A stretch of 52,547 bases of DNA from Welwitschia mirabilis (taxonomy: Eukaryota), in the NCBI GenBank assembly GCA_051453625.1, contig JBOZIK010000001.1, positions 27,582,359 to 27,634,905 of the forward strand. Reading direction: 5' to 3'. The position numbers were made by a program, and so were the translations under genes. Positions within the stretch are counted from its first letter, which is position 1; the number at the start of each line of letters is the position of its first letter. Under the pieces are notes generated by a model. It saw only the letters and a list, made by a program, of their open reading frames with translations. It was not told the DNA's origin and did no database searches. This document shows, piece after piece, positions 18,520 through 52,547 of this stretch.

Positions 18520-20154
18520 TTTAGTAAATAACTAGTATAACATTTAGATTTAAATTAAGTAAAACACTTCATATCATTCTTCTACATAGATGTAAAAGAT
18601 AAATTATACAAGAGAAACAAACTTAGTCTAACTTGTAATAAAACTCATACAAACTAAAAATTATAAAGTTGAAAGAAAATAAGTAGTCTTTAATTAGTAA
18701 CATAAGGCAACAGAAATTCTTCAAGGATCTAATGATTTATCCAAATCTCCTACTTTTCTCCAAAAATTTCTATATCCTAAAACATGTGCTTAAATCATCA
18801 AATCATTAAGGCTCAATATGGATGCATAATCTCCTCCACTACATAAGTATTAGTGAGTTATCAAGTCCTCTCAATATTTCACAATCCTTTATAAGTGTAA
18901 AAAGTATAAACCTAAGTGCACAAGATATATTAAATAATAGGAACTATAAATCATAAAAGTAACTTTAAATAACTTACGTGCTTTCAAAAAACTTGATAAT
19001 TTAATAGGCTTTACCTAAGTACAATTTACTATGCATTAACAATAAAATAATAAAACCTACTTTAAGAACTAGTTCTACATAAATATTGCTAATACCCAAT
19101 AGAGTTATGCATTAATAATTAAAGGATTCAACCAATTCTTTATTAAAGCTAAAATAAATATATTACATCAGTGAATAAACAAAAGAAAAAGATCACCTTA
19201 ACTAGCCATGGATCATCCTGCCCCTTAGAAAGATGTTAAAGTGAAATAATGTTAAAACATCCAAGTTATTCATATGATAAACCAACTAAAGATAAATATA
19301 ATAAAAGGTTCAAGATCCTTTTATATAAAGATATGAAAATGAGAGATGGTTACAAGCTCTTAGACCATAGAATTGGAAAGAATCTTCTCATTTAGTATTA
19401 GGAAGATAAGATTTTATCTTATAATATTTAGTGGAGGTTTTTATATAAAATTAAGTAGATGAGATCATGTCCTATAGCATTAGGTAGAGTCTTTATCATT
19501 TAGCATTTGGTAGAGGTTGTCTTATATCATTAAGTAAATAATATTTTATCTTCTAGCATTAAGTAGAATATTTACCATTTAGAATTCAGTGGAGGTTGTC
19601 TTGTAGTATTTGATAGATATTATCTTATAGCATTAGGTGGAATCTTTATCATGATGAGTTTAACACATATTCTTTGTAATCAGGTTCCTCTACCAACTAA
19701 TATAACTACCATATGTCTTTAGTACTATCTTTACATACCTTTACCACATCTGTTCTAATGTTGCTACTACATGTCACCACATCATATCTTCATTGTTATT
19801 ATTGTTTTATGTGGAATTTTATCCATCTTCTATCATGTTTGAAAACATGGCTAATGATGTAAAATTATCATGAACAAAAAAATAAAATTTTATTTTATTT
19901 TAAAAATAATAAAGACATATTTTATGATTAAATTAATTAAATTTATATCTTCATTTACAATAAATTGCCTTGAAACACTTGATATAAATGTAAATTTTTA
20001 CATGTCAGTGCACCCTCTAACTAGTCTTTTAATAGAGGTAAAAGTCAATAATGAAATTATTAAACATGAAAAACCTATTTATGTCAAAAGCACTCGAGTG
20101 CAAATGATATAAATTAAAAAAATTTATAACCACTTTTATGTGATTAAGGCATCA
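18520..20154 (-). mobile_element. Gypsy (Athila-like) LTR of a further family, with internal tandem repeats
   Basis: Direct homolog of ~24085-25110. Ends in GCATCA (TGATGC start on the minus strand). Array of ~22-27 bp TAGCATTAGGTAGA-containing repeats at ~19390-19650. Confidence 0.6.
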
Positions 20155-25110: not shown

Positions 25111-26336
25111 AGAATTTATTAAAATAAATGCCTTAAATAACTTATATTTTTAAAGCATTTAGAGGGGGGAAAAGCCTTAAAAGATAGCTAAAATCAATCT
25201 GCGCTTTATAAAAAAATTTAGTTCTTTTATTTTTTGTGTTTCATCTTTTTTCTTCAAACCATGGTTACCCTAATGCCTAAGTTAGAAGATGGAGACCTTT
25301 ACAATGCTATAAGCATGCTATTTTTAGCTTCATTAAGAACTTAGTTATTAGTTCATAAACCTTTGAGTGGTATTTACTAACTACTTTTTGGGCTATCTTC
25401 CTTATCTATGTATGTTCTTTACTTTAGCTTGCTTTCTAATAAATTGATTTCATTATTATGATTTACTTTGATAATTTTTTAAAATTATTAAACTTTCACT
25501 TTCTTCTATTAGAAAAGAGGTCTGATCTTATGTCAAATAAAGTTTTTTGTACAAACATTATGTGAAACTTCACATAAGGCACTAAATAGTGTTGTTTTTT
25601 ATTTTTGTTTTTTAGTTTAAACCAAAAGATATCTTTTTTTTAAATAGAATAATAACTATTCCAAAACTTATTCAGAACATATTCCAAGACTTCCAACTAT
25701 TTTCTTCACCACTTTACTATTGTGCATGCCTAGTTTGTTTCCTTTTACTTACTTGTAAGTTTTAAGAACTTTTATTTACAACAATCTTTGATAAAAATCT
25801 GTAATTCTAAATGCATGATTATAGTATTTCATTTTTGAATGTCATAATAAGCTTGTTATGAAAATTGAGTCATTGAATATTACCTCATTAGAATGAAGTA
25901 AAAAGAAATATATTTCATAGATAAAACTCTAGTGACCTAAGTGGTGAGAGAAGGTTAAGATTACTCAAATAAATAAACATATGCTTTATAATCTAAGGGT
26001 TTTACTACCATGTACACATATGATAAAGTAAAAGCAATGGAGTGAAAATAAGAAAGAATGAAAACATAGTTCACAGAATGAACGTCTGCCTAGGTTTTGA
26101 TTTAGTGATTGGGATGCAATGTGGTGTTTTCTAGTTTCTGGAATGAAGATTGTCCATTCTTAGATAATGAATAATAATTCATATAATGGTTCAAGTAATG
26201 AGGAATATTTACAAATCTAATTATCATGGAATTTTAGTAGTCTAGTTTAGAAAACTAATTCGCTAATGCCATGTATTATAGAGTCATCTTCATTTATAGT
26301 GAAAGCCTTTCTAAGGCCATGCTTTATGCTTCATGG

Positions 26337-26639
26337 CATTGCTTCTAGGACATGAATGTATTATTTAGATAAATTACTAGTTAAAGTATTGCTATCTAAT
26401 TTATGAATCAGATGGTTTAACTTTGCTACTATTTGTTTTACAATTAGATTGCCATTTCTTACTAATCACAACAATGTAGGAACAACATCTGCACTTTCAA
26501 TACATGCCCAAATATCCTCACTATAACTATAGAGATTACTAAGAATAGTGAAAGCATCTTCTTTTATCTTGAAAACCCCTATTTCCAAAATTTTGAGGAG
26601 GAGAAATATGTCACTTGTAGTAAAAATGGCACATTTACT
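26337..26639 (-). pseudogene. CSI1: Fragment of CELLULOSE SYNTHASE INTERACTIVE (CSI1/POM2-like) armadillo-repeat gene
   Basis: Translates as SKCAIFTTSDIFLLLKILEIGVFKIKEDAFTILSNLYSYSEDIWACIESADVVPTLL*LVRNGNLIVKQIVAKLNHLIHKLD...TSNLSK*YIHVLEA. Matches recalled CSI1 [63 protein letters not shown]...LNHLIHKSD. Confidence 0.88.
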
Positions 26640-26979
26640 AAGGAATATGTAATTTTCTTGTAAATTGGTATTATGATTATAATATCTATCATTTGTATCT
26701 ATCTTTTAAATGAATCTAAGATTTTTAACAGTGCTCATAGCTAGAAGACTTTTAGTATAGTGGTGATCTAGTCCTCAATATAATAATCCAAGCTAGATTA
26801 GTGTATCACTAAATAGCAATAAGGCTTGGAAGCAATGGAAGAATTATCAAAAGGAAACTAAAGAGCATAAAAGCAAGCTCCTTAATCTTCAAATTCACCT
26901 ACCATGATACCCTTTTAATAATAGGAATTTTTCAAGACATACTCTTTCTTTAAATGTTCTTGGATCTAACTTTATAGTA

Positions 26980-27870
26980 ATATGACAATTTCTTACAAGG
27001 AAAACAAGACTCTATCACCAAGTTTTTTTAATGATCTAAGTAGTTAAGCATAATCCAATTAACATAGGACTCGAAATCCTTGGTAAGATCCAAGGCATAA
27101 TAGTCTAATAATTTTAGAATAAGCAATTTTTTTTTGTGTGGAGAATACTAAGTTTTGCTTGTAGATACTTCCATTTTATACTTTATAGTTCCATCATAAC
27201 ATTTTTTGCTATATAAACATGCACTGTAATGTAAATGTTACTAATGGCTTAAGATACTCCAATCCATGTACACTTCAAATTATTGTTTTTGTGTCCATTT
27301 TCCCACTTTTTTGAGAAACATCCTTAAAATAATATAGTAATCATAGTATGAAATGTTTAATAGCTAATGTATTGAAAAGTTATTCATCCACATTAATCAC
27401 AATGTTTTACATAATGGCCACATTCATATGATGATTGATTGAAATCCCTTACTGAATATGAGCATTTACCATGTAAGCATTATTTACATTAATCCAAAAT
27501 ACTAACTTCTATTAAGATTCATGCCTTTCAAATTCATAGCATTTAATTTTTTAATATGAAATATTAGCCTTTTTATTAGATAAGAGGAATTTTGTATCTC
27601 AATCATGTTGTAAGGACTAATATATTTAGGATCAGAATTGAGAAAAATTACTTATGAGTCTTATAATTAATCTATATTTTCAATGTCATCTCATGGCTAA
27701 AGGGGTTTTCTACATCCAAATCTCTAGTGAGTAGTGGTAGGGGTGAAGTTAAATTTGCATTATGCTCTAAAATAAGGCTTTGCTTCTTTAGCTTCAAAAC
27801 AGATATGCAATAAGCATCTTACTATTTCTTCAAAAAGTTTGATGGCATCAATAGCAATTAAGTAATATGA
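26980..27870 (-). pseudogene. DUF547-domain intron-less fragment, tandem unit 1
   Basis: KLFEEIVRCLL...GLEYLKPLVTFTLQC...ILKLLDYYALDLTKDFESYVNWI. Homologous to units 2 and 3. Confidence 0.85.
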
Positions 27871-28785
27871 TAATCTCTTACAAGATGAATGACAATATAT
27901 CACTAAGTTTGACAATGATTCAAATAGTTGAGCACAAATCTAGTTGATAAAGGACTTTGAATTCTTAATAAAATTCAAGGCATATCAATCTAGTAATTTT
28001 GGAATAAGTAATTTTTTTTTAGAAATAACACCAAGTACTACTTGTAGATTCTCTCATTTTGTAGCTTCTAATTCCATCCCAACTTTGGCTATTATACAAA
28101 CATGCATTGTAATGCAAATGTTAGCAATGACTTAGGACACTGAAAGTCCATACACACTCTAAATTGTTGTTTCTGTGTCCCTTTTATCACTTTTTAAAGA
28201 AGCATCTTTAAGATGATATGACAGTTGTGGTATGAAATGTTCAATATATAATGCATCAAGAAGGTATACATTCACATTAATTATGACCTTTCACATGAAG
28301 GCAATCATCATATGATGATTGGTTGGAATCCCTTACTTAATGAGAGCATTTACCATGTAAGCATTATATACATTGATCCAAAATGTTAACTTTTGTTGAA
28401 GATTCATGCCTCTTAAATTCATAGTATTTAATTTTTTAATAAGAAATCTTCACCTCTTTATTACATAAGAGGAATTTTAAATCTAAGTTATGTTAATGAA
28501 ATTGGCGCTGATATTATGAAGATACTTATAAGGACCAACGTCTTTAGGATCAGAATTGAGATAGATTCCTTATAAATCTTATAAGTCATCTAGATTTTGA
28601 ATATCACCTCCATGGTTTGGAGTTCCTTTTATGCCCAAATATTTAGTGAGTAGTGGTAGGTATGAAGTAAAAGCTACATTGTGTTCTAAAATAAAGCTTT
28701 GCTTCTTTAGGTTCAAAAAAGATATACAATAAGCATTTTACTATTTCTTCAAAAAGTTTACTAGCATCCATAGTAGTTGAGCAAT
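27871..28785 (-). pseudogene. DUF547-domain intron-less fragment, tandem unit 2
   Basis: SKLFEEIVKCLL...DPKDVGPYKYL...[30 protein letters not shown]...IEHFIPQLSYHL...MELEATK...LLIPKLLD*YALNF. Shows DUF547 hallmarks KLAFWINxYN, IEHFILRLPYH and IPKLLDWY. Confidence 0.9.
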
Positions 28786-29166
28786 ATGACAAACTCTTAC
28801 AAGAATAATAATACTCTATCACCAAGTTTTACAATGATCTAAGTAGTTGAGCACAAATTGAGTTAACAATAAACTTTAAGTCCTTATCAAAATCTAAGGC
28901 ATATCAATCTAATAATTTTGGAATAAGTAATTTCCTTTTAGGAATAATACCAAATGCTACATATGTATACTTCCATTTTATAGTTTCTTCTTTCGTCATG
29001 ACACTAGTTGTTATACACACATGCACTATAATGCAAATTTTACTAATGGCTCAAGATACTCTAGTTCATACACACTTCAAATTGTTGATTTTCTATCCCT
29101 TTTACCACTTTATAGAGAAGTATCTTTAAAATGATAAGGTAGTCATAGTATGAAATGTTAAATAGG
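28786..29166 (-). pseudogene. DUF547 unit 3, 3' half (separated from its 5' half by a CACTA insertion)
   Basis: I*HFIL*LPYHFKD...LEYLEPLVKFAL*C. Joins seamlessly to 43859 when 29167-43858 and one TSD copy are removed. Confidence 0.87.
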
Positions 29167-29174
29167 TACCACAA

Positions 29175-29585
29175 GAAATTTAGGCTTTTAAAGCATTTCT
29201 AAAATGCCTTTAAAATGCCTTAAATGCTTTTAAGGTGTTTCTTCATAAAACGCTTTAAAAACCATAACCTTTAAGACATTTGCCTTAAAAGATCTTTTAA
29301 GGCATTTTTAGAAGAAATGACTCAGAAGGCTTTTGAGACATTTTATTAACTCAACGCCTTAAATGGCTTTTAAGGCACTTTCTCATATAAATGCCTCAAA
29401 ATCTTTTTAAGGCGTTTACTAAAAAAAGCCTTAAAATCCTTTTAAGGCATTTTTTTATAAACGCCTTAGAATAGTTTTGAAGTGTTTTCTAATATGAACG
29501 CCATAAAAGGCATTTAAGGCATTTCTTTTCATGAACACCTCAAAATGTTTTTAAGGTTCTATAGCAAATAAACACCTTAAAATAT
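29175..29585. repeat. CACTA subterminal repeat array (GCCTTAAAA / TTTTAAGGC)
   Basis: Many direct and inverted copies of AAATGCCTTAAAA-like units. The same motif occurs at ~43710-43840 and ~25115-25185. Confidence 0.88.
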
Positions 29586-30147
29586 GTAAGTTTGGAAAAA
29601 AAATTTACCACAAAAAGGAATTAGTGGGTTAGTATTACTATTGGCTCTACTCTAGTAATTATGTTATTATTATTGATTCTACTCTAGTTTTATTTCAAGG
29701 GACTTACTCCTAATATAAACACATACTTTAAAATGAAAAGGATATAAGGATGGAAACTTAGCTTAGTCTACATAAGTTCATAGTCATGATTATATTTGTA
29801 TTTTAAATTACTTTTATTTTTAGTGTAAACTTTACAACACCATTCTAACATTTTAGAAGAATTTAAATTCAAATAAACAAATATAATTATTATGTTAAAA
29901 TTAACTAAAATAAGTAAAGGGCTCAAATCCAATTCTAAATAATATAGTTAATTGTTCTAACTCTTAGTTTGTCATTGGCCCTATTACCCAATGAATTATA
30001 AAGTACCATGTATATTATCTAATGGCATATGACATTTTGTCTTTGTAGTTAAAATCATAAAGTATTTATTTATTAATGCTAATAAGCAAGATGGTAAGGA
30101 AGCAAGTGGTCCTTTAAAGGTTCCTTGTTTTAACCCTGTACTTGACA

Positions 30148-33100
30148 TGCATACATACATCAAATCAAAATTGCAACACCTATACCTTCTCATCCTTCAT
30201 CAGTGTCCACCATTTCTATGCTTATCAACAATCACACAACCTACCCCAAGGAAAGGAGAGAAGGTTGTTCTTAGCAGGCTAAATTCTCTCTTTGAGGAAT
30301 CTGGACTTATAACCATAACCTATAAGACTATTGAGGTTTTCATATTAAGAGCTACTATGGCTCTAAATCCAAAAATGACACTAGTGCAATAGCGAAGAAT
30401 GGAAACACTAACTATGTAGAGAAGAGATAGGAGTCATTTTTTCATCATAGGTATTAAGAAAATGTCAGTTAAAATCAATAACTAAAAATGTCAGCTAAAA
30501 ATTTTATGGTTCTAAACCAAAAAATTGCTGACTTTTTCAAAATGTCAGCTGGAAATGTTAGTTGACTTAAAGATACTTTTAGATTCAAAAAAAGGGTACA
30601 TGTTGCCCATTTTAAATCTATGGTTAATAAACACTTTAATATGTTATTTAAAAACATTAAATTAAGAAAAACCAAAATTAAATAATCATAACAAAGTTTG
30701 TTTGAGAAAGAAAGGAGATTTTCATGTAGTGTTGTTGTGTTAGGATCAACATATTAAATAATAAAAGAAAAGAATAACATTTGGTTACATTTCAATGATA
30801 ATTGAAGAGGATAACAAATTTCTTTTAAACACTACTATTCCTAGTTTCTTTTACATGCAACAAACCAATAGGTGATAAAGTCCTTTAGCTTTAATTTTAT
30901 TTAGTTATAATATAAATGCTTTGGCATTTTGTGACAACCAATATATAAGATATGGGTAAATAAGGGAAGTTGGTTTGTAAGATTTATTATTAAAGGTCAT
31001 GGATCATAGTCCCATGAACATATAGTAAAGAAGGAGATGTATTATATATTCCCTATTTTTAATTTATTTTGTATTGTAAAACAAGTATTTTTATAATTCA
31101 TGCCATTTAACATAGAAAAAAAGAAGTGGCATGGAAATTCATCAAAAATATTTGGTTATATTGCAAACAATCAAGAGATGAAAGATATCCCCTATTCTAC
31201 TTTAGTATTGGGTTATAAAACAAGTATTATTATGGCTTGTGATGGTTTATAATGAAAGATATCCCCTGTTCCACTTTTATACCGTGTTAGAAAATAGATA
31301 AGGAACACTAGTTTTGGGTGATAAATGAGTGTGTCTTAAGTAATAGTAGTAAGAGATACGATAAATAGTTCCTTTATTGGGGTGAAGTGAATAAAAAATC
31401 AGTTACTATTGGGGGTGAAATTCATAGCCAATAGGAAGCTACTTTGGGTGACAGCATGGAAATCATTTTCTGATTAAAATGCATTGTGAAATTAGAAAAG
31501 TAATATTAGTATTTTGTACCATAAATGTGGGATGAAATATTGCAACCATTAATTGAATAGAAAATTGGAAACATGAGACTAAGTAAATTTGATAAATGAT
31601 TGTCTTAAAATGCTAGGGGGTTCATAAGCTTGGGTTCAAAGGTTTAGTGTTGAGAGTCTTTTTCTTTAATATGAAGGATTTGATGGCCGTGGTAGACAAA
31701 TTCAATGGACTTAAATTATGAGCTTTGGGAATTAGAGCTAGTGGACATACTCTTTAAGCAGACATGCAGTTGCTTATTTAAGGGTTGACTAAATTTGTTA
31801 CAAAGGTATAGGATGAAACTTTTGCATATTGCTTCTAGGAAAGGATGGATAGAATCCATCAAATCAAGACTATGACAAATAAAGTGTTCTTGCATTGTAA
31901 GTTGCATACTTTTAAACTAGAGCCAAATGATAATTATTAACAATGATTCAATACTATTCATTCTTTAAATGGTAGTTGTAAGAGTAAAGATGTCTATTAA
32001 GGATCAAATGTTGACTCTCCAATGTTCATTTCTCAAGTGTTCAGATAAGTTGGTAAGATCACCAAGCAATACATGTTTTTGTGATGAAAGTAAGCAATAG
32101 AAAAAGAATGTTCAAGATGCTTGACATTGTAAGAAATTAAGGCATATTGGGAGGGATTATCCTACACCAAAATATGAGGATTTATTTAGTGAGGTTGATT
32201 CTTAGAAGATGCTAGCCTTATGGAGGAGGATATCACTTATGATAGCATTAGGAGTTATGTCATTTATTCTTCTGAACAATGATAGTTATAGTTATGGGAG
32301 GTTTTATGTTGTGTATCATTTCAAGTTTTGCTAGTTGCGAAATTCCTAGAGAGATGTTCTTATGCAAAGATATTTCTTAGAAATGATACCCATCCCTTAA
32401 AACCTCTGATATAGTCTAGTTCATATAATAAGCTATGGACAAAAAATTTTATAGAAGTTGGAATTTCCAACTTTTGCTTCATTAATTTGTTCATGTTGGA
32501 AAGCAACATAGAGTTGTCTTCAAGGGGCAGTCATCAGAGAGTTTTAAAGTCAAATGTTTTTGTTATTGTACTTCTAGTTGAAACACCCTCTTCTTGCATT
32601 AAGCATGACAATTAAAACTTAAACTAATATTCTTTTTATGAGTTAAAATAAAGGAAATAAATATTAAATTTTGATTAAATTTATATTTGACAATATGTGA
32701 TGGAATTAGATTTAAATCTCATGTGAATTTAAACAAATTGTAAGTTAGCAAAATTATTTTGGAAATGGAAGGATTGCAAATTGAAAGTGAATTAACATTG
32801 AGAATAGTTCAATCTAGATTGAAGAAGAATTTATTTGATTTTGATCAGATCTAAATTTCTATATAAATTGGAAATTAAGGTAATAAAATCACTACAAGAT
32901 TAATTTATTATTAAAAATTGATGAAGAATCCGGTTAAAAGCTATTGAATTGAGTTAGAAAAATCCTCTTGAAAATGTATTTAACTTGATTTCATTTGATT
33001 AAGATAGATATAAAATATGAATTTATGATTAAAAAATTTTGAATTATAACAAGCAAAATTATGACAATCATATTGGTGGAAATTTGATTGAAATGAAAAC

Positions 33101-36100
33101 CAGTTTAGTTTTTTGTCCTTTAGGATGTTAATTAGTTCTAGAGTTACACTAATTAGACCTAGAGTTTATGACATCCTTACTATGAAATTTACATTAAAGG
33201 AAATACATCAAAATGTTTAAGGGATGTTCAAAAATTGTTAAAGTATAAAGCAAGCTGGTTAGAAATCATTTTTTTAATGTTTGAATTTTGGGTGAGTACT
33301 ATTCATAAAAGGGTGGAAAGGCATGCATGCTAGGATCATCACAAAAAATTCTATTCATTATTGTTCTTCAAATTGAGCATTACAACTATATTAAATTATG
33401 AGAAACCTATAGAATCCATGAATCTTAGGCCCTACAACAAAAAGAGTAAGGAATAAGGGATAGATTTGGCTTAACCAAAGAATGAAGGCATGACTTCTTC
33501 TTCACTTTAAGAGTAGTGAAACCTCAAACTTCCTGCATAATCTGGCTACTATCACATGTGACTTGATTTATCTTACCCTACAAGAAAACATTTAATAGTG
33601 ATAGAAAAATAAAACAAGAAGGACAAATTCAAAAAACATAAAGAAAATAAAAGAAGGAAAAAAATATTTTTATGAATAAACCTTCATCAAGGACAAACTT
33701 TATATTTGTATGTCATGTGTGGAAATGATGACCTTAAAACTTGGAAATTAAAATATTCTCTATCTTATGCATTACAACCAAAATGGGAAAAAAGTTGAAA
33801 CTCAAACTTTCAAATCTTTCATCAACTCTGCTTTTAAAACTTGAGTGCTTCTAGACTTTAGCAATAGTGTCTTACAAACTTTCAAACAAAATACTCAAAT
33901 ACTCTAGTCTTAATCTGTGCTCCTTTATCTTATTGAAGTTTATCTTTAGGAGAGTCACTGCTCATCATCAATGCGTGAAGATGCATATTAGTTGAAGAAA
34001 CAACATAATAAGGCTACTGGACTACCACTGGACATACCTCATATCTTTTGATATATTCTAAGATTCTTGACTTTAGTGGTTGGCAGAGATATTTTCATGG
34101 AAATTTTTAAATAAGGAGTTAGAGGGAGGATGTGAATGCCAAAAAGGAAAGATACCTATTTGTCATTTATGTACACCTACTTTTTAAATTTAGCAATGCA
34201 GGCTGTGTACGTACCTTTATTATTGCATATCTTACATGAATTCCATTATGTTCTTTCTTTCTTGTTCCTTGATCATGGGTTTTCTAGTGTATTCTATAAA
34301 TTCTTCTCTACCAGAAGCACATTGATATAAGTCTTTTGATATCTAATTTTTTTAATTTAAAATTAATTCTATAAGATAAATTTTATTCTTGGAACATGAA
34401 TTGTTAGCTCTTCCATGCCTCCACTGAAGTGTCCTATTTTGATTAGTAATGTTGGAACTCCATTATGTATTATAGCATATTTTCCTCCCATTAGGAAAGA
34501 GTTTGTATTGCCTCAATTAGTCATACTCTATGAGAAAGAAGAAGAAACTTCTCAAAGTTTTTCTTCATGAGGAGTCCATATGGGTGGCTACCGGTTGGAT
34601 CAATCATTTGTTATAAAATGAAAATAAATAGTGTTGAATCAAGAAACGTATATCCAATAGATCAAGAGAAAAGACACAATGATATTAATTGGAAAAACTT
34701 TTTAATGTAGAGGTAACATCCATGGGAAAAGAGGTTAGAGCACTATAACTTTGCAATAGAAAAATGAAAATAGACATAAGAAGCAAAGATTTCCAACTCT
34801 TNNNNNNNNNNNNNNNNNNNNNNNNNNNNNNNNNNNNNNNNNNNNNNNNNNNNNNNNNNNNNNNNNNNNNNNNNNNNNNNNNNNNNNNNNNNNNNNNNNN
34901 NTGCATACATACATGAAACCAAAACTGCAACACCTACATCTTCTTATCCTTCATTAGTATTCATCATTTCTGTGCTTATCAATAATCACACAACCTAGCC
35001 CAAGGAAAAGAAAGAAGATTGTTCTTAGTAGGCTCGATTCTCTCTTCGAGGATTCCAGCCTTACTACCATAACCTGTAAGACTGTTAAGGTTTTCATGTT
35101 AACAGTTATCATGGTTCTGAATCCAAAAATGGCTCTAGTATAGTAGAGAAGAATGGAAACACTGACTGTGTAGAGAAGAAGGAGGAGTCATTTTATGACC
35201 ATAGGTATTATGAAAATGTTAGCTAAAAATGTTAGTTGAAAATATGCTTCTAAACCAAAAAGTTGCTAACTTTTTCAAAATATCAGCTAAAAATGTCAGT
35301 TAACTTAAAGATACTTTTAGACTGAAAAAAGGTACATGTTTTCCTTTTTTGATGACATGTTACCCATTTTAAATCTATGGCTAATAAACACTTTAAGATG
35401 TTATTACATAACATTGAATTAAGAAAAACAAAATTAAGTAATCATAATAAAGTTTTTTTAAGGGAGAAAGGAGGTTATCATGTAGTGTTGTTATGTTCGG
35501 ATCAACATATTAAATAATAAAAGAAAAGAATATCATTTGGTTATATTCCAGTGATAATTGAAGATGATAACAACTTTCTTTTGAATACTACCAATGCTAG
35601 TTTCTTTCACATATAACAAACCAATAGATGATAAAGTCCTTTAGCTTTAATTATATGTAGTTATGATATAAATGCTTTGGGGTTTTGCAACAACTAATAT
35701 ATAAGATATGGGCAAATAAGGGAAGTTAGTTTGTAAGATTTATTATTGAAGATCATGGATCATAGTCCCATGAACATATAGTAAACAAGGAGATGTATTA
35801 GATATTCCTTGTTTTTAATTTATCTTATATTACAAAACAAGTATTTTTGTGATTCATGTCATTTAACATAGAAGAAAAGGAGAGGCATAGAAATCCATCA
35901 AAAATATTTGGTTATATTCATGCTAGTGGGAATGAAAGATGATAATGTTTTATTATTGAAGATCACAATTTACGGTTCCTTTAGTATACTACAAACAATC
36001 AGGCGATGAAATATATCCCCTATTCTACTTCTATATTATGTTAGAAAATAGGTATTCTTATGGCTTGTGATGGTCTATAATGAAGAAAATGATGGCTAAG

Positions 36101-36773
36101 GAATACTATTTTTGAGTGAGAAATGACTATGTCTTAAGTAATAGTAGCAAGAAAGATGACAAATAGTTCCTGTGTTAGGATGAAGTGGAAAAACAATCAG
36201 TTATTGTTGGGGGTAAAATGCATAGCTAACAAGAAGCTATTTTGGATGATAGCATGGCAATTATTTTTTGATTGAAATGTATTGTGAAATTAGAAAAGCA
36301 ATATTAGTATCCTATACCATGAATGTGGGATGAAATCTTGCAACCATTAATTGTAAAGAAAATTGGAAAAATGAGAATAAGAAAATTTGATAAATGATTG
36401 TCTCAAAATGCTAGTGGGTTCATGAGCTTGGGTTCAAAGGTTTGGTGATGAGAGCATCTTTCTTTGATGTGGAGGATTTGATGGCCATAGTAAACAAATT
36501 CAATGGACTTAAATTATGAGCTTTGGAAATTAGAGGTAGTGGACCCAGTCTTTAAGCAGACATGCATTTACTTATTTAAGGGTTAACTAAATTTGTTGCA
36601 AAGGTATAGGATGAAACTTTTGCATAGTGCTTCTAGAAAAGGATGGATAGAATCCATTAGGTCAAGACTATGATAAATTGTTCTTGCATTGTAAGTTGCA
36701 TACTATTAAACTAGAGTGAAATGAATCTATGTTTGATTACTGACAATGATTCAATATTGTTCATTCTTTAAAT
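30148..36773 (+). repeat. Direct duplication: 30148-31970 repeated at 34902-36773
   Basis: Collinear and visibly diverged, with many substitutions and small indels. The second copy begins right after a 100-N gap. Confidence 0.9.
31650..33320 (+). pseudogene. Highly degraded copia gag-pol remnant
   Basis: VDKFNGL/NYELW (gag N-terminus), C*HCKKLRHIGRDYP (zinc knuckle, ~32118-32162) and GKQHRV (pre-integrase, ~32500). Confidence 0.55.
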
Positions 36774-37776
36774 ATCAATTCAGTTATAATTCTTTTAGTA
36801 CTAATGTTCTGCATTCATCCAAACCTTAAGGAGAAAGTAGCCTTCAAAAAAGGCATATATAATTTGCTAGAAAAATAACTCTAAATGAAAAATGTTTGAA
36901 ATGTATTGAGTATAGGTCATATCACACTTCAGATGTGATTTAATAATTCACAAGAAAAAGTAGCATGAAAATACTTATTACATTATTTAATTTGAATATC
37001 CTTTTACATGGAACGATAATTTAGGGGAGGTATATTCCACTAATTGTTATGAATGCACCTGACTTGTATGTGAAGCTCTTTTCTTAATTTTTTAACCACA
37101 CAGGAGAAAGTAACATGTGTTAAATAGAAGAGAGGCCTCACCTGGTTACAACCAATTTTGATATGATATTATCTCTAATGTTTGATATGATCTCTTGGTC
37201 AACTCAATGTGATCTCCTAAGTTGTAGGAGAATATTGTAGCCTCAGGTATTACCAAGCCTAGAGTGTTATATTATTTCATGATGATACATTATTGTTCTT
37301 CAAATTGAGCATTACAAGTGTATTAGAGTATGAGAAACCTACGAAAGCCATGCATCTTAGATGCTACAACAAAAAGAGTAAGGAAGAAGGGATAGATTTG
37401 GTCTAACTAAAGAATGAAGGCATGACTTCTTCTTTACTTTAAAAGTAGTGAAACCTCAAACTTCATGCATAATCTGGCTATTACCACATGAAAGTTATTT
37501 TACCTTACCCTATAAGGAAACATTTAACACTAATAGAAAAAGAAATAAGAGGTAAAAAAATCAAAAAACACAAATAAAAAAAGAAGGAAAAAAATTTTTT
37601 TTTTACTAATAAACCTTCATTAAGGAAAAACTTTATATTTGTATGCCATGTGTGTAAATGATGACCTTAAAACTTAAGAATTTAAAGATTCCCTATCTTA
37701 TGCATTACAACCATAGTAGGGAAAAAGTTGCAACTCAAAGTTTCAAATCTTTCATCAAATCTACTTTTACAAGTTG
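33356..37776 (+). repeat. Direct duplication: 33356-33843 repeated at 37288-37776
   Basis: Both copies start CATTATTGTTCTTCAAATTGAGCATTACAA and stay collinear for ~490 bp. Confidence 0.9.
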
Positions 37777-38128
37777 TAACCATTTTGAAAGGAATTTTAT
37801 ACCATTTGTTGTCTAAAATCTAAATAGTAATTAATGAAAGCAAAAAATTAACTAAACTATAGATCAAGAACTAGCATAAAGTAAGCCACATAAATCATTT
37901 ACTAGCCAGCTATTCTCTTCCAATAAAATAAAACATTAGCTAGCTATATATCATTAAGCATTATCTAGATCATACATAAGTTCTCAAAAATCTTTTTCCA
38001 CATGTTAACCCAAATAAACATTATAACCCTTTACAAAAAAGAGAGGAAAAACGTAAAAGCTAATTGCAAGTTCACATTCTCAATAAATGCTAATTATATA
38101 CTTATGATTTAAAAGTCATATATTAAGG

Positions 38129-38131
<3 letters not shown>

Positions 38132-38171
<40 letters not shown>
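38132..38171. repeat. (CA)n microsatellite
   Basis: Direct reading. Confidence 0.97.
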
Positions 38172-38175
<4 letters not shown>

Positions 38176-38799
38176 AATAGAGAAGAGACTTACACACAAT
38201 GGGTCAAAAGGAATAGGGAACAAAATACTTACTACTTAAAACCCTAAGATAAAGTCTAAAATATGATGGCCAAAATCAAGAATCTTGAATTCTCAGTTCT
38301 TTAAATGTTTCTCAGTAATTTCTATATAAATGTCTTTTAAATATACATAAAATAATAAAGTCCCCATAAATAAAATATTAAAATCATTCAAAGAAATAAA
38401 GCCTCATCCCTTAAGTACAAAATTAAGATTTTGATACCTTCTGCTAGATTCAAGTTTGGGAGTAAGACATTCATGCTAAAAATGTTCATGAAGTATTATT
38501 AGGCAGCACAATTTCTCTTATATTTCTTAACTTCCTTTGATAGACATGAATTCTCTACCTTAATGGAAGCCATTTTGGTAGAATTATGACTGATAAATTC
38601 TGATTTTGATTCCAATTTTACCTCAAGACACATCAACCCATCAATTATTTTCTTTTTGTCTTCAACCTAATTTAGTAAAATTGTGTTCTCTTTTTGAAGA
38701 GAAATATTACATTTAGCAATTTTATCCAATTCTGTAAACTTTGAATTATTATTAAAAGCATCACAAATAGCTTCATACTTTGCACATTCCTCTACTAAA

Positions 38800-41700
38800 A
38801 ACAAATTCTTATTAAGAGAATCTTTCAATAATGACTTTATCTAAGCTAAATCCATTTTTAAACTCTTACCTTTAAGAAGTAAATGTTAGTTTTCTTAGCA
38901 AACAAAGGAATGAGGAAATGTAAAAAGGATGCAAAAATTAAATGATGTAATATATTTTCTTCTGGACTAGAAACAAAGTAAGTGTTATAAACCAAACTGT
39001 AATAGACGTGATAAAGTAGTGATAATAAAAACAACCTTAAAAATAAAAACTTGTGTTTGAATCAGACCCAAGTCAAACTATTAAAAAGTAGAGGAAACAA
39101 TTGAGCTAAAGTAAAGTGGTACACAAGCAGTAACTAGTGAATATTAAGGAGAGATTTAAAAAGCACTAGTAAAGTCTAAATTTTCTATTCTTATAAACTA
39201 GGTATTACTAATAAATATTTTGATATAATACATATCCTAACTTCACACTAAATCATCATACTAGTCATAAGACAAAGCTAGGTTATGAAGTATTATGTTA
39301 ATGACTCTATAAGTGCTTATCTAAGAACTGAGATTTTAAAAAGTTTATTACCATGCATGGAAAATCTAAGGCCCTCATCACATCTTTTAACAAAAGATGC
39401 CTACAAAAAAGAAGCTTGTATTTAAACTAGTTATAACCATTACCAATTATAGGATCATCTAAATGCTTGTAAATTTTATTTTGCTAGAAATGAAAAGTTA
39501 ACAAGTATTTGACTAATAAATAATTAATATTTAATAAAAAAATGAAAGGAATGTCATCAGATGCTTTAAGCATTATCATATCTAAATAAAACTAGATAAT
39601 AAAACTCAAAAGGCAATTTCAAAAATGAAGAAGCTCAATCAACTAATAGGGACCATTCAAAATATCAATGAATTCATTAGCAAGAATCATCCTAAATATT
39701 TTATATCAAAACATCTTTAACTAAAAGTACCAATTCAAATTTCCCAAAAGAGAAATCATTTTCAGAAGTAATCAAATTATACTAATTAATATAAAAGCAT
39801 TATTCTATTTTTGAACTTATCCAACTTAAATCATAAAGAATATTTTTGACATTTATAAGAAACAATGCTATTAGTGAAGTAGCACTAAAACAAAAAGAAT
39901 AACTTTGGCACAAAAATATTCTAGAGGTAATTGGGTAGGAGAATCTTTATCGAGAAATGTGATGTATCTTGTCTACCATTCTACTTTTCTTGAACCCCCG
40001 TTTTCCTTTAATAAATAAGTGAATGAATGGATGATATTCCTATAACAAATCCACTACACTGACCCCTTAACATCTTCATGCTATCATCATAGGATACCTG
40101 ACTTAAATACCATGCATCATCCTATTCCTAGCACTCATGTTTTAGTCAATAATTTCAAACCAACAGATTCTGTTAACATGTGGTAACTAAATTCTATCCT
40201 TTTCTCAACTCCATTTTTAACATGTTTATTCTAGCACTTTGATGAGATTTTATCAAATATGCATCAGTGATATTTTTGTCTAGTTCCCTTGAATTATGTT
40301 GCATTGGTATACATCCAATGAATATGCATTTTATTCCAATGTTAAGAAGTATGGTATGTTCCCCTTCTAAATCATATCCATTTGCTTTGCTTTCATTTGC
40401 TAATTCNNNNNNNNNNNNNNNNNNNNNNNNNNNNNNNNNNNNNNNNNNNNNNNNNNNNNNNNNNNNNNNNNNNNNNNNNNNNNNNNNNNNNNNNNNNNNN
40501 NNNNNNCTAAAATCAAATTCTTATTAAGAGAATCTTTCAATAATGACTTTATCTCAGCTAAATCCATTTTTAAACTCTTACCTTTAAGAAGTAAACGTTA
40601 GTTTTCTTGGTAAACAAAGCAATGGGGAAATGTAAAAAGGGTGCAAAAATTAAAGGATGTTATACATTTTCTTCTAGACTAAAAAAAAGGTAAGTATTGT
40701 AAAAAAAAATCCAATAGATGTGATAAATTAGTGATAATAAAAACAACCTTAAAAATAAAAAGTTATGTTTGAATCATACTTAAGTAGAACTATTAAAAAG
40801 TAGAGGAAAGAATCAAGCTAAAATAAAGTAATACACAAGCACTGACTAGTGAATACCAAGGAGAGATTTAAAAAGAACCAGTAAAGTGTAACTTTTCTAT
40901 TCTTATAAATTAGATATCTTGATATAATACATACCCTAACTTTACATTAATCATCATAGTGATCATAAGACAATGCCAAGTAGTAAAGTATTATGTTAAT
41001 GACTCTATAATTGCTTATCTAAAAACCAAGATTTTAAAAAGTTTATTGCCATGCATGGGAAAACTTAAGGCCCTCAATGCATCTTTTAACAAAATATGCC
41101 AACAAAAAACAAGCTTGTATTTAAACTATTTATGACCATTACCAATTGTAGGATCATCTGAATGCTTGTAAATTTCATTTTTCTGGAAATCAAAAGATAA
41201 TAAGTATTTGACTAATAAATAATTAATATGTAATAACCAATTGGAAGGAATATCATCAGATGCTTCAATCATTACCATATCTAAATAGAACAAGACAATA
41301 AAACTCAAAAGACAATTCCAAAATGAAGAAGCTCAACCAACTAATAGGGGTCATTAAAAATATTAATGCATTCATTTGCAAGTGTCATCCTAGATTTATT
41401 ATATCACAACATCTTTGACTAAAAATGCCAACCCAAATTTCCCAAAAGAGAAATCATTTTCAGAAGTAATCACAATTATACTGATAAATATAAATGCATT
41501 GTTAGGTTTCTAAAATTGTCTAGCTAAAGTCATAAAGAATATTTTTAATATTTATAAGAAAGAATGCTATTAGAGAAGTAGCACTAAAACAAAAAGAATA
41601 ACTTTTAGACAAAAATATTCTAGAGGTAGCTCAGTGGGAGAATTTCTATTGAGAAATGTGGCATATCTCATTTAGCATATTACTTTTCTTGAACCCCTCT

Positions 41701-42103
41701 TTTCCTTTAATAAATAACCAAATGGATGAATGGTATTCTTGTAATGAATCTACTACACTAACCCCTCAACATTTTCATGCTATCATCATAGGACACCTTA
41801 CTTGAATACCATGTACCATCCTATTCATAGCATTCATGTTCCATTCAATAATTTCAAGCCAACGGATTCTATTAACATGTGTAACTAAATTCTACCCTTT
41901 GTCTAACTCCATTTTTAACATGTTTATTCTAGCACTTTAGTGAGATTTGATCAAACGTGCATTAGTGCTATTTTTATTTGATTCCCTTTTATGTTGCATC
42001 AATATACATCTAATGAATATGCCTTTTAGTCCAACATTAGGAAGGATGGGATGTTTCCCCCTCCTCAATCATTTTCATTTGATTTGCTTTCATCTACTAA
42101 TTC
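38800..42103 (+). repeat. Tandem duplication across gap: ~38800-40406 repeated at ~40510-42103
   Basis: Both copies start AAATTCTTATTAAGAGAATCTTTCAATAATGAC and stay collinear with scattered substitutions. Confidence 0.9.
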
Positions 42104-42950
42104 CCTAATTATTAACTAAATTTCACTATGACTTATTATCTAAGTTTGAGCACATAAATTTTTCTCATCATGCTTACCCCAATTCATCCATTTTAAAACA
42201 TGTACCTCACTAAAATACTTCTTTTTCTTCCCATGTGATTTTTTATTTTTCTCATTCACACCGTCTATTAGTGGTCAGCATGTTTTCTTCTCTACTAAAA
42301 TGGATAGAATGTTATTCCTTCTTACATGTCAGATTTGTCAAATAGCCATCTCCACTATAAAGAATTAAACACAAAAAAAAATATTACTCTTTTGAGATGA
42401 CCAACAATCTTCCTTTTTTCTTAAGTTGGGCATTTCACGATTTGTTAGTCCAATTGCACATTCTATTCTTCTTAGTGGTAGATAACCATGCCTTCTCCTC
42501 TGACTCATGTGTTTTCTTAACAATAATGTATGTAAGCATTTCATTCTTCTCCTCTCACTCAGCCCTTTATTCCTAATGTATGTTGCTATAAATAACTCAT
42601 CTATGCAGTGCATTCATATCAAGCTTAATAATCATAATTTTTTATCCATAAAAGCCCCTTGTAAGCAAATCATTTTACCTACTTAACAACATATGTTATG
42701 ATATTTTATTAGATAAAGAATATTTTTGATTGGCCATTTGTGGAAATGGCTAATATAAGAAAAAATAACTTTGGGACAAACCAATATCTATAAGAACATA
42801 TCCTTCTCTCTTTTCTTCAACCACCATTTTTGCTATAAAATCCTTCATTTCCCATAGTATTGCCTCTTGAATCTTTAGCCAAGCCAAATCTTATGCCCAA
42901 AATGCAATAAAATATTTTATCTACTTGAAATTAGACTTCTAAAATTTATT
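39950..42950 (-). pseudogene. Probable decayed copia pol fragments
   Basis: Short motifs only: KCIFIG (integrase-adjacent), RRHGYL (LWHRRxGHL-like) and DIGLSQ/FVP-like segments. Weak. Confidence 0.35.
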
Positions 42951-43858
42951 TTCTCTTTTCCTAAAAAAGAGGAAGTCATTTATTTTGAAGTTATGTACAT
43001 GGCATTTATTATATCAAAAATAAGAACATCTCACCAAATGATGAAAAGTTCTATAGATCCAACTACCTTGGCTGATCTGTTATGAAGACATTTATGTACT
43101 CTTAAATTCAGAAACTTGGGTACCAACAAAGATTTAGCAATAATTTCCTTCTAATTCCTGAAACCTAGATGTATATCTTTGTTAAACTTTTGAAAGAAAC
43201 ATCAAAAGTTTTAGCTGGAAATCTTACAGGAAACAATTGACAATCAATATGATAGTGATAAATATAACCTTTGACCTTCAATCCCTACCTGCAATCACTG
43301 GTTTTCAAAGTCTGACCACCAACGGCACTGAAATTAAAGGTAGAATCTTTGAAAATGCTAGCACACCCATCATACTTTTAAGTATTATTTTCTACATTAT
43401 AGTTCTGAAAAATATTTTTAAATGCTTGACTAATCAAATCTTCTTCAAATTCTTGCCTTGTCATTCGATGCTCCTTTTTCTTGAGTCTCGTATAAGTTTT
43501 CATGTGGTTGTGGTTGCCATGATATTCCATAAATATTTTCTTTAATTTACAAGAACTTCCTGTGCACACATCAACAAGCTGCAGCATTAGGGCAAATGAA
43601 ATGTGTGAAGTAAAACTGAAGCACGTGAAATGTAAAAGGATGTCTCTTTTTATGTAAAGCAACTAAACTATTTAAGAACTGGGTTTTTTTTAATTTTTTT
43701 TTGCATTGTTTTTAAGGTGTTTATTTTAAACAAATGCCTGAAAAGGATCTCGAATAGCTCTTTTTTTAAGGCTTTTATTATAATAAATGCCTTAAAATGC
43801 TTTATACTTAAAGTACTTATTAAAATAAATGTCTTAAAATCTTATATTTCTCATAGTA

Positions 43859-44995
43859 AGCTAATGCATTGAGAAGGTATCCATCCATATTGATCACAGC
43901 CTTTCACATAAAGGCAATCATCATATGATGATTAATTGGAATCCCTTACTTAATAAGAGCATTTACCATGTAAGCATTATATACATTGATTCAAAATGCT
44001 AACTTCTATTGAAGATTCATGCCCTATAAAGTAATAGTACTTAATTTTTCAGTAAGGAATCTTAATTTCTTTATTATACTAGAGGATTTTGAATCTGAGT
44101 CATGTTGATGAAACTAGCTCTTATATTAAGGACCAACATCTTTAGGATTATAATTAAGATAGATTCTTTATGAATCTTGTGAGTCATCTATGGAATATCA
44201 CCTTCATGGTTGGGACTTCCTTTTATGTTCAAATATCGAGTAAGCAGTGGTAGATATGTAGTCAAAGCTACATTGCATTCTAAAATAAGGCTTTGCTTCT
44301 TTGGCTTTAAAAATGATACATAATAAGCATTTTACTATTTCTTTAGAACGTTTGCTAGCATTCCTAGTTTTTAAATCCTTGAAGTAAAACTTTACATGCA
44401 ATCTAGATTACAATTACAAGTTATAAGATCATGTTCTACATGTGCTTTCAATGATTATTGTGTTCTTATTTCCTTGCCTTCTACTGAATAAGGTAGCCTT
44501 TTAGGTGCAATTCTTGGTTTTGAAACTCAAAAAATAGAATTTTGCATATTTGTGATTCTATACAACTAATTCTCTTTACCATGATTAATATCAAATGAAC
44601 CTAGATTATTTTGTAATGTTTTTAATTATTTTATGTTATCTTTTATAAATTTATTATTAAGGGAATTCTTTAATGATTTCATGATTTTAGTTAAAGAGGT
44701 AGAATAATGATTTCATAATCAAATATAAGTATTACTTTTCTTTTTCTTATCCCTAATACTTATGGAGCAACATCAATGGAGTGCTCCATTATAGTGGGAA
44801 GTAGATTTCCTATACAAAATCTCTTTTATTATGTCCTCATGGACTAGGTAGCTCTAACTTGTTAGCCGCAAACTAGTCAACATTATTAATAGAATCTAGT
44901 TACCTTTTTGATAATGAAATGTAGAGAGATTCTTGATACAATCCTTGAATAATTTATTCTTCCAATCAAATAACTTCCTCCTTTAACATAACTTT
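43859..44995 (-). pseudogene. Lzipper-MIP1 / DUF547 retrocopy, 5' part (unit 3)
   Basis: LKEEVI*LEE*IIQGLYQESLYISLSKR (MIP1 leucine zipper, cf. LEEEVVRLEEQVVxFRQGLYQEAVYISS), HGKEN (~44570), SKRSKEIVKCLL, and [12 protein letters not shown]...KAVINMDGYLLNALA. No introns visible. Confidence 0.87.
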
Positions 44996-45548
44996 AACTA
45001 ATTCAAAGAAAATTTCTTTGAAAAGTTTATCTATTGGGCTAATAAAATCTAAAGAATCTACAATCACCACATCATATTTCCTTTTGGGAGAGTCCTTTAG
45101 AAATGCTACTCCATCACCAACATGAATAGTAGCTTCGAAATCCATAGTAAGGCTAGAAAGAATTGTTCAGAGATATTTATAAATTATATTCACATCATCA
45201 ATTTCACATATGTTAATATGCTCCATGGGCTATTCCTAAATACTTCATGAAGTCCTCCACCATCTCCACCACTTGTAACAAGCACATTTTTGACAGTTGG
45301 ACTAGAGAAAAGGGGAAGATGGGGTATCATCTATTGATAGGAATATTCATTCTTTTCAATCAGCTAAATGATACCTTAAAATATAAGGACTGTGTCATAA
45401 ATTACTGATTGAAACATCATTACGTCTTGATACTCTAATTGACTTTGATATAAGATTTTCTCCACTTTTAAGGAATCAACCTCACTAGGCCACATGAAAC
45501 TAACTTTAATCAAAGGATATGAAGGTTAGGCTTTACTTATGTATCCAT
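44996..45548 (-). pseudogene. SPDS: Spermidine synthase processed pseudogene fragment (N-terminal ~two thirds)
   Basis: MWPSEVDSLKVEKILYQSQLEYQDVMMFQS...SYQ*MIPHLPLFSSPTVKNVLVTSGGDGGGLHEV...CEIDD...IHVGDGVAFLKDSPKRKYDVVIVDSLDFISP..LFKEIFFE. Continuous across positions where plant SPDS genes carry introns. Candidate ATG at 45548 with a CTT-rich leader. Confidence 0.93.
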
Positions 45549-46058
45549 GGCATATATAGAGAGCTTACAATCAAAAGAAGAAGAAGAATGGGTGCTTACA
45601 TTCTCTCATTTTGAGTGCCACAAAATTGTTTAAAAGAGGAGCATTGCTATGTATGTTGATCTTACTATTATGTTCTTTACCAGAGAGGTAACAACCACCA
45701 TGAACTACTACAATGTCCTGGAATCCTGGAATGCTTTATTATAAAAGCCATGAAGAGATAAGATGGAAAGATTATCAATTGGATGATAAAGAAGGTTATA
45801 ATCCTTTAGTCAATTAGCCTGTTAATTCAAGTATTCTTTCTTAACTATCATAGACTTGTGTATTTGGATAGACATCAAAGTTTAATCAAACTTCTACTTC
45901 AAATCTACTTCAATCATCTTCATTAGTTAACTTCTTTGGTGCTAAATCTACACACTTTGATAACATGGCTTCATATGGTTTACTTGGTCTTGACATCTAA
46001 AGCATATTTTTATCTAGTATATTATCTAAGAAAAATCTTGTGGTAAATTCCTTTTCAT

Positions 46059-46153
46059 TTTATGTATAATGCCCATATTGTAAAATGCCTTAGCATATAT
46101 GAGCCTTTGGATTCTACCTTTTCATAGTAGCTAAGAGTCAAATCATATTGCAT
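46059..46153 (-). pseudogene. SPY: SPINDLY-like TPR fragment (may extend ~45800-46330)
   Basis: MQYDLTLSYYEKVES-(frameshift)-RLIYAKAFYNMGIIHK versus recalled SPY MQYDNALSCYEKAALERPMYAEAYCNMGVIYK. Confidence 0.72.
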
Positions 46154-46704
46154 CCTACAAGATTTGAATCCTATGGCATTCTTCCTTTCTATCATTTCTA
46201 AGCAACCCTAAGTTTATCTGCTATGTGTTTGTCATACAAAACTGCATTACAATATCCCAGTTTATACAACTCTAAAATTTCTTGAAACACATATAATTAA
46301 TCTCATCCTTATCTTGTGCATTAAAGCTATATTATAATAATAGATAAGAATAATTACTTTTTGCTAGGTAAGATTCTAGATAAATTTTAAATCCATAATT
46401 AGTGATTGAGCATTATCACTATAGTCAGCTATAACATTATATTAGTATTTGACTACTTAATATTTATTCTACATTCTTATAATTGTTGATGTTCCTTTAC
46501 TATAATTTACTTAGTGTTGAAACTACTATAGAAATGCATTAAATGACATCATTACATCCATCATCATCATGTAATAAATCCATTTATATGAGAAACAATG
46601 GCTACATGTTTATGAACTGGTAATACATAACCAATTACATTTAAATTTATATCTATAACTTCAAAAATTATTATGTACTTATTTGTCTAATATTAATATG
46701 TGTA

Positions 46705-51283: not shown

Positions 51284-51546
51284 ACGTGTCAACTTTAAAA
51301 TGTATTTGGACAATGCTTATCAACCACAAAATACTACCTTGTCTTTTCGTGTCAAATTCGTTCACTGTTAAGAATGTCTTGACTTTTCAAAATCCGGAAA
51401 CGCAGTAAGTTGCAGCGTCTCTTTTTGACCACGTATACAATTTAATTCTGGCTGGGAGTCTTCCATTATTGAACGCACGCCAGTTAATGCCGATCCCACT
51501 CACTCTCGCTGCCATTGCCATTGAAATGTGTAATTGCTATATAAAC
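51284..51546 (+). promoter_or_regulatory. Proximal promoter of the beta-glucosidase
   Basis: TATATAAA at ~51538-51545, about 90 bp before the ATG. ABRE-like ACGTGTC at 51284; W-boxes TTGACT at 51379 and TTGACC at 51425. Confidence 0.6.
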
Positions 51547-51629
51547 AGCTCTGGAACGGCAACTGCATCACCACCATCGTTCTCTCATATTCTTTCATTC
51601 GGCAATTGCAAAACACTGCTCAAGCATTG

Positions 51630-52547
<918 letters not shown>

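Follow-up and report, generated by a model that had tools for sequence, protein, structure and literature searches.

In a 52,547-nucleotide stretch of the Welwitschia mirabilis genome (contig JBOZIK010000001.1, positions 27,582,359 to 27,634,905; hereafter the window, numbered from its first letter), we followed up a prediction, made from the letters alone, of a cassette composed of fragments of four plant genes. Fragments of SPINDLY (SPY), spermidine synthase (SPDS), a DUF547/MIP1 protein and CELLULOSE SYNTHASE INTERACTIVE (CSI) were found near the predicted coordinates, all on the minus strand. The cassette is probably a dead, apparently single-copy chimeric processed pseudogene, in which at least four spliced messenger RNAs (mRNAs) were brought into one complementary DNA (cDNA) by template switching and integrated a single time. 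Its limits had been predicted as 26337 and 46330; the CSI piece does end exactly at 26337, whereas 46330 lies some 130-180 bases past the last recognisable SPY residue. All four pieces hold stop codons; the SPY, SPDS and DUF547 pieces are frameshifted as well, and the CSI piece stays in one frame. The cassette is decayed and non-coding, without sign of activity or mobility.

Four gene pieces on one strand

The minus strand of the two cassette arms, which flank a 14.7-kb insert at 29167-43858, was cut into stop-to-stop pieces, and 54 of the 91 pieces of at least 22 residues were run against Pfam, in a scan restricted to 25989-46412 that passed over most of the short pieces. As reference proteins we used P0003 and P0058, transcript assemblies from the EukProt transcriptome of Welwitschia mirabilis, which are the closest full-length proteins to the cassette.

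The SPDS fragment (44981-45605, minus strand) corresponds to residues 34-250 of P0058, a 363-residue Welwitschia SPDS that was retrieved with a 66-residue piece of the window. Three of the 54 pieces (45379-45525, 45193-45330 and 44969-45166) matched Spermine_synt_N/Spermine_synth (PF17284 and PF01564), with E-values of 1.4e-7, 3.7e-7 and 2.4e-12 and scores of 31.7, 30.3 and 47.3 bits against gathering cut-offs of 22.1 and 22.9; spermidine synthases in PDB matched the fragment at E 1e-10. The tblastn alignment with P0058 is collinear, interrupted by at least two frameshifts, seven in-frame stops and small deletions. Its first 21 residues are 81% identical to P0058, and the piece as a whole is 50-52% identical; it is a pseudogene and no working family member. 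The aligned residues would require 651 nucleotides and are covered by 625, with no gap of the size of an intron. SPDS genes are reported to have nine exons in pepper (PMC10003509) and likewise in Spirodela (PMC8545783), a dicot and a monocot, which makes 217 residues free of such gaps hard to obtain from genomic DNA.

The DUF547 piece adjoins the SPDS fragment. P0003 (656 residues, with Lzipper-MIP1 PF14389 and DUF547 PF04784) was found at E 1.1e-35 with a read-through translation of 43859-44398 in which stops were written as X. By tblastn, the 5' part of a long copy (43859-44989, minus strand) covers P0003 residues 107-493 up to the insert, and its 3' part (28781-29166, minus strand), which self-comparison identified as the third of three tandem units, carries residues 496-618 on 29157-28814. 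Unit 2 (27862-28780, minus strand) holds residues 318-619 on 28774-27892; it is the best preserved, with 59% identity over 284 residues, and its piece 28336-28449 matched Pfam DUF547 with 29.4 bits against a cut-off of 27. Unit 1 (26976-27861, minus strand) holds residues 316-618 on 27861-27010. The pieces are collinear with P0003, residues 107-493 occupying 1131 nucleotides (1161 expected) and the 302 residues 318-619 occupying 883. In the long copy the frame shifts three times or more, and nine stops fall within the last 180 codons ahead of the insert. Identity to the parent protein is 33-67%, a decay similar to that of the SPDS piece, which fits one age for both. The transcript isoforms P0003, P0056 and P0057 differ at the N-terminus only and give no internal splice positions.

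At the downstream end, an Arm-repeat fragment of CSI (26337-26639, minus strand, tblastn) aligned to about residues 476-584 or 559-667 of CSI proteins, in one frame with three in-frame stops. When 1.84 billion representative sequences were searched with a read-through of 26250-26705, 37 proteins matched at E≤0.001 (best 1.5e-17); the top match is named CELLULOSE SYNTHASE INTERACTIVE (Salix), the cluster of another includes Arabidopsis CSI3, and matches of about 2100-2150 residues aligned at residues 506-597 and 558-667. The 79-residue open reading frame (ORF) of this piece had no match among proteins of up to 2000 residues, and it was the library-wide search that resolved the piece.

At the upstream end lies a fragment of the TPR region of SPY (46040-46153, minus strand); it is equivalent to about residues 198-238 of the Arabidopsis protein and is frameshifted once, near 46118-46121. 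In phmmer searches with the frame read through at 45969-46121, SPINDLY (7y4i/8dtf) was the best of 177,635 PDB sequences at E 1.2e-6, the next unrelated protein standing at 0.16, and with a longer read-through SPINDLY entries were the sole PDB matches at E≤1 (E 9e-4). The ORF at 46058-46207 alone was without a SPY match in PDB; the neighbouring frame supplied it, and the remaining two read-through frames over the region had no PDB match. The E-value is helped by the repeated TPRs of SPY, and the best stretch, residues 212-238, is not significant alone (i-Evalue 5.8). Immediately upstream of this stretch the SPY target line has MMQYDNALSCYEK, for which the window, in frame 2, has MQYDLTLSYYEK, a comparison that shows MQYD..LS.YEK; about 40 SPY residues are therefore covered, with one frameshift. 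The match appears specific to SPINDLY as opposed to TPR proteins generally, yet it is the weakest of the four identifications.

Two spacers separate some of the pieces. The one between SPY and SPDS (45607-46039, minus strand, 433 nucleotides) gave no PDB match beyond the SPY stretch in three read-through frames, and the one between the DUF547 array and CSI (26640-26975, minus strand, 336 nucleotides) gave no tblastn match to P0003; neither was matched by Pfam, the latter in three read-through frames, nor was the 1.2 kb on either side of the cassette. Among the domains by which the original prediction expected the pieces to be recognised, Spermine_synth and DUF547 were matched, whereas the TPR and Arm models of Pfam missed the SPY and CSI pieces, giving nothing at E≤5 on either read-through.

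Independent DNA contigs and RNA reads

Two sets of DNA contigs from different studies (X1 and X2) and two RNA runs (X14 and X17) were compared with 26250-46249. An X1 contig of 966 bases (44589-45553) spans the SPDS/DUF547 junction near 44990 with two differences and one gap, an X2 contig of 587 bases (44589-45175) spans the same junction without any difference, and another X1 contig (28544-29222) crosses the left insert junction, again with no difference. Matches of this quality, with 0-2 differences, indicate that the stops and frameshifts are not assembly errors and that the chimera is no scaffold artefact. DNA depth was present in 30 of 30 bins in both X1 and X2, and the right arm or part of it was present in 13 run rows from four studies. 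An assembly artefact of a gapped scaffold might be suspected, as the window holds six N gaps and near-duplicates of 76-85% identity beside three of the four 100-N gaps. The cassette arms, however, are gap-free, and the contigs, bins and run rows described above support the sequence; we regard such an artefact as scarcely credible.

Word depth in cassette bins away from the insert was 0.5-4.3 (X1) and 3.4-8.7 (X2), the lowest of the stretch compared, and at the insert it reached 300-530 at the ends and 6-123 inside. The cassette thus shows no sign of belonging to a high-copy family, word depth itself not being a copy number.

No RNA run stood among the sequencing runs listed as containing a cassette arm. 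In the direct comparison, 112 reads (X14) and 97 reads (X17) were placed, with only a partial fit in 98 and 81 of them; the reads cover short, conserved segments of the SPDS and DUF547 pieces. The window has T at 45104 and at 45214, positions at which C stands in every one of the 191 reads (34+35 and 51+71). Loose read ends, compared by eye, are collinear with the window near 45061-45156 (two, in SPDS) and 28118-28144 (in DUF547) and differ from it mostly by C/T and G/A. At 45606, read ends run into unlike sequence, which when translated by eye gave the ten residues that precede residue 34 of P0058; similarity to the parental SPDS mRNA breaks off sharply here, so that the 5' breakpoint of the SPDS piece is fixed to the base. 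The allele differences, together with the residues ahead of residue 34, indicate that the RNA reads derive from spliced parental mRNAs. Cassette-specific alleles were found in no read of the two RNA runs, about a quarter of each of which was examined, and the bins without parental similarity had no RNA reads.

The listed differences between reads and window (45104, 45214 and 28160-28168) have T or A in the window where the parent has C or G in 7 of 10 cases for X14 and 7 of 8 for X17, the direction expected from deamination decay.

Joining of the pieces

The arrangement of the pieces bears on how they came together. They all lie on one strand (4/4), and all are internal to their mRNAs; that none of the four reaches the mRNA 3' end speaks against a separate retroposition of the ordinary kind for each. 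Between SPDS and DUF547 the protein alignments share 9 nucleotides (44981-44989), so that at this level the two pieces abut directly. Collectively, the collinearity with transcripts, the single orientation, the internal segments and this abutment argue for a template-switched cDNA over DNA capture or serial retroposition. The original prediction had proposed an origin from mRNAs with serial template switching, and the intron-free collinear pieces in one orientation fit this. What the data show directly is which genes the pieces come from, that they run collinear with transcripts, that the junctions recur in independent DNA, the succession of the later events and the decay; from these we infer an RNA intermediate, joining by template switches and integration on one occasion.

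In the sequence of events that we propose, pieces of the SPY, SPDS, DUF547/MIP1 and CSI mRNAs, together with two short spacers of unknown source, would have been copied into one cDNA, all in the sense orientation, most likely through repeated template switches of a reverse transcriptase. This chimeric cDNA would then have integrated once. Afterwards, a 0.9-kb part of the DUF547 piece was amplified to three tandem units, a non-autonomous CACTA-like element entered the third unit, and the whole region decayed under the C-to-T drift of a GC-poor genome.

A number of observations weigh against this reading. There is no poly(A) after the CSI piece (minus strand, downstream of 26337), nor could a target-site duplication be identified for the cassette, its outer ends not being defined to the base. 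Self-comparison of the window yielded no pair of long terminal repeats (LTRs) flanking the cassette, the best flank-to-flank matches being 24-38 nucleotides long with E 0.005 or worse, no more than expected by chance. Remnants of reverse transcriptase, integrase or gag were found in none of the 128 ORFs of at least 50 residues across the window outside the cassette arms, none of the 88 flank ORFs of 34-49 residues, none of the 114 insert ORFs of 33-49 residues and none of the 12 read-through frames, these scans being plain ORF lists and small read-through sets with a sensitivity below that of a full six-frame scan. LTRs, retroelement proteins and poly(A), by which one or the other known route would be recognised, are thus all missing, and no particular kind of reverse transcriptase is indicated. 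The two spacers (433 and 336 nucleotides) are unexplained. One and the same breakpoint, from about residue 619 to about residue 304 of the DUF547 protein, recurs four times, which unequal crossing-over fits better than repeated template jumps. CSI genes have few introns, hence the CSI piece is uninformative in this respect, and we found no paper on the structure of DUF547 genes. For SPDS, the exon evidence is that from pepper and Spirodela, and the available parts of the Ginkgo and Scots pine polyamine papers do not state an exon count.

The cassette could represent the internal cargo of an LTR retrotransposon, comparable to maize Bs1; pieces of host mRNAs would have been taken up by template switching in the particle, and the LTRs and coding parts of the element would since have been lost or become unrecognisable. 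LTR-mediated chimeric retrocopies are described as typically made of internal mRNA pieces that lack introns and share one orientation (PMC5470649), Bs1 is described as carrying three host gene segments (PMC13317346), and retrotransposon bursts are reported for the likely source genome (PMC8275611). However, the window still holds recognisable repeats at 75% identity, no remnant of reverse transcriptase, integrase or gag is present among the ORFs scanned, and word depth is low; we consider this origin unlikely. An extended form of the idea would make the cassette the bare remaining core of a gnetophyte retroelement that had transduced pieces of at least four host mRNAs and had since lost its LTRs; such a vehicle for exon shuffling, akin to Bs1, would exceed in size all those described. 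This strikes us as decidedly unlikely. Were it true, the genome might hold additional copies or a relative that is transcribed. The mobile gene-shuffling vehicle of the original prediction is not borne out either, given that the cassette has no flanking LTRs or terminal inverted repeats (TIRs), no poly(A) and no transposable-element protein remnant in the scans above, that word depth is low and that no RNA read carries its own alleles.

The fragments might instead have been joined at the DNA level, as cDNA filler in the repair of a chromosome break or as several truncated retrocopies in one spot. The lack of poly(A) and of a target-site duplication, that is, of the hallmarks of a single retroposition, would agree with such an event, as would the spacers of unknown origin between some of the pieces. 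On the other hand, the same orientation of four out of four pieces has a chance of 1 in 8, the SPDS and DUF547 alignments overlap without filler, and for independent retrocopies of the type made by long interspersed nuclear elements (LINEs) one would expect a retained 3' end and A-tail in every piece, which none of them shows. Joining at the DNA level therefore seems to us improbable, and we continue to favour template switching within a single cDNA.

Tandem amplification and a CACTA-like insertion

Self-comparison of the window showed a repeat of about 890 bp present three times in tandem, the third unit being split exactly at 29166/43859 by the insert. The units share 78-81% mutual identity and have a GC content of 28-30%. 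Three copies of the DUF547 piece had been predicted; three tandem units do exist, but they are in reality one long copy plus two extra units. The unit junction (about residue 619 to about 304) recurs between the units and again after unit 1, where about 35 bases of a fourth junction are present. This recurrence would fit one short initial duplication followed by unequal crossing-over. Among polarised substitutions in the three units, 95 were C>T or G>A, 84 were T>C or A>G and 74 were transversions, majority-rule polarity with three copies being weak; the excess of C>T and G>A is visible only when counted per G/C site.

The insert at 29167-43858 is a CACTA-like non-autonomous element of 14.7 kb, recognised by its TIRs, by empty sites and by subterminal repeats. 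Its predicted boundaries were confirmed by the register of the DUF547 repeat and by the terminal inverted repeat, which matches in 25 of 34 ungapped positions, a score equalled by none of 20,000 random window pairs. The ends read TACCACAAGAAA and TACTATGAGAAA; both start with TAC and not CAC, reading TACCA at the left and TACTA at the other end, and we take them to resemble the plant CACTA terminus with C-to-T changes. Comparison with units 1 and 2 identified a 3-bp target-site duplication, AGG at the left (29164-29166) and AGC at the right (43859-43861): unit 1 has an uninterrupted site in which AGC occurs once, and the site in unit 2 is likewise unbroken, though diverged. Short subterminal repeats are enriched in the insert. 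No transposase was found in its ORFs of at least 50 residues (within the set of 128) or in its 114 ORFs of 33-49 residues, which would make it non-autonomous or decayed.

Since the insert lies inside one unit and the other units retain empty sites, it arrived later than the triplication and does not enclose the cassette. The CACTA-like element is accordingly no carrier of the cassette but a later insertion into it. The more general possibility that the cassette is cargo of a DNA transposon (Pack-CACTA, Pack-MULE or Helitron), possibly assembled from older retrocopies, gains some appeal from the presence of a CACTA-like element on the spot, and plant Helitrons and Pack-type elements are reported to carry several gene pieces, often in one orientation (PMC2575219, PMC1947982, PMC13317346). 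That very element, however, sits within one unit, with its own target-site duplication and with empty sites elsewhere. No TIR pair surrounds the cassette, and Helitron ends were not searched for, as their GC-rich hairpins would not survive the decay. Gene fragments captured as DNA are expected to keep parental introns, and the pieces lack them. We judge such cargo to be very unlikely, and the template-switched cDNA remains our preferred origin.

Two observations concern the insert itself. Two of the 100-N gaps fall within it, and both are accompanied by duplicated blocks: 38795-40406 is repeated directly after the gap at 40407-40506 as 40507-42103, and 30148-31970 is repeated as 34902-36773 after the gap at 34802-34901, in this case with the first copy about 2.8-4.7 kb ahead of the gap. 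The length of 14.7 kb is for this reason uncertain. A 44-residue ORF (39586-39717, plus strand) has a sub-threshold match to the ubiquitin-like domain of TECR (E 0.001, 19.4 bits against a cut-off of 27), which may be a captured gene scrap or chance.

Setting of the window

The window is AT-rich throughout, with 23-37% GC per kb (N gaps excluded), and contains six N gaps. At three of the four 100-N gaps, the sequence after the gap repeats sequence before it with 76-85% identity; besides the two in the insert, this applies to the gap at 2430-2529 (495-2429 against 2537-4637, direct). These near-duplicated flanks may be scaffold-joining artefacts or real tandem duplications. The sole apparently native gene of the window is a glycosyl-hydrolase family 1 (beta-glucosidase-like) gene, of which the first exons lie at 51534-52423 on the plus strand; three ORF pieces match Glyco_hydro_1 profile positions 3-19, 19-62 and 60-87, with E-values down to 8.6e-14.

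Two further repeats were noted. The two copies of a direct repeat of about 1 kb (18533-19586 and 24091-25116) share 75% identity and stand 5.5 kb apart, separated by sequence that includes a 100-N gap; both are found to one side of the cassette. They may represent a duplication or the two LTRs of an old element, and the ORF scans detected no pieces of retroelement proteins in the interval. An inverted repeat of about 1 kb (6805-7780 and 9172-10155, 73% identity) flanks a 720-N gap.

Comparison with known systems

The cassette offers a clean, well-delimited instance of a chimeric retrocopy with several parents, in a gymnosperm-like genome of extremely low GC content, and provides a small natural timeline that leads from chimera to tandem amplification, transposon insertion and C-to-T decay. 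Its value lies in annotation and as a case for surveys; the extent of RNA-mediated shuffling in this lineage is said to be largely unknown (PMC5470649).

The insert resembles non-autonomous elements of the CACTA (En/Spm) group in its 3-bp target duplication, its TIRs and its subterminal short repeats. The TIR consensus of this group is of the CACTACAAGAAA type, which the TIRs of the insert resemble. It differs in that its termini read TAC in place of CAC, with TACCA at the left end, and in that no transposase domain was found among the ORFs scanned. As for the cassette, a mosaic of several host gene fragments in non-coding DNA is also what capture by Pack-MULEs, Pack-CACTA elements (Tgm-Express) or Helitrons produces. 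Unlike the cargo of these elements, however, the cassette is collinear with mRNA and has no enclosing TIR pair (Helitron ends were not searched for).

As a rule, LINE-derived chimeric retropseudogenes carry poly(A) on a terminal 3' part and are bordered by target duplications, whereas the 3'-most piece of the cassette is an internal CSI segment without an A-run. Likeness exists nonetheless in the direct fusion of copies of different transcripts in the same orientation, as described for the bipartite and tripartite chimeric retropseudogenes of mammals and of Magnaporthe; chimeric retrocopies made by LINE enzymes are reported from mammals and fungi (PMC2104539).

In plants, chimeric retrocopies arising through LTR elements are known from Bs1 and from cases in rice and Arabidopsis (PMC5470649, PMC13317346). 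The cassette shares with these the intron-free internal host segments in one orientation, for which repeated template switching is the usual explanation in the same reports. Bs1 lies between LTRs, is transcribed and translated, and has three parents; the cassette has no LTRs that could be found in the window, is ridden with stops, has its own alleles in no RNA read, and combines four parents with a tandem amplification. Without calling for a new mechanism, the cassette is another chimeric retrocopy of a known kind, old and dead, drawn from four parents in a gnetophyte-like genome.

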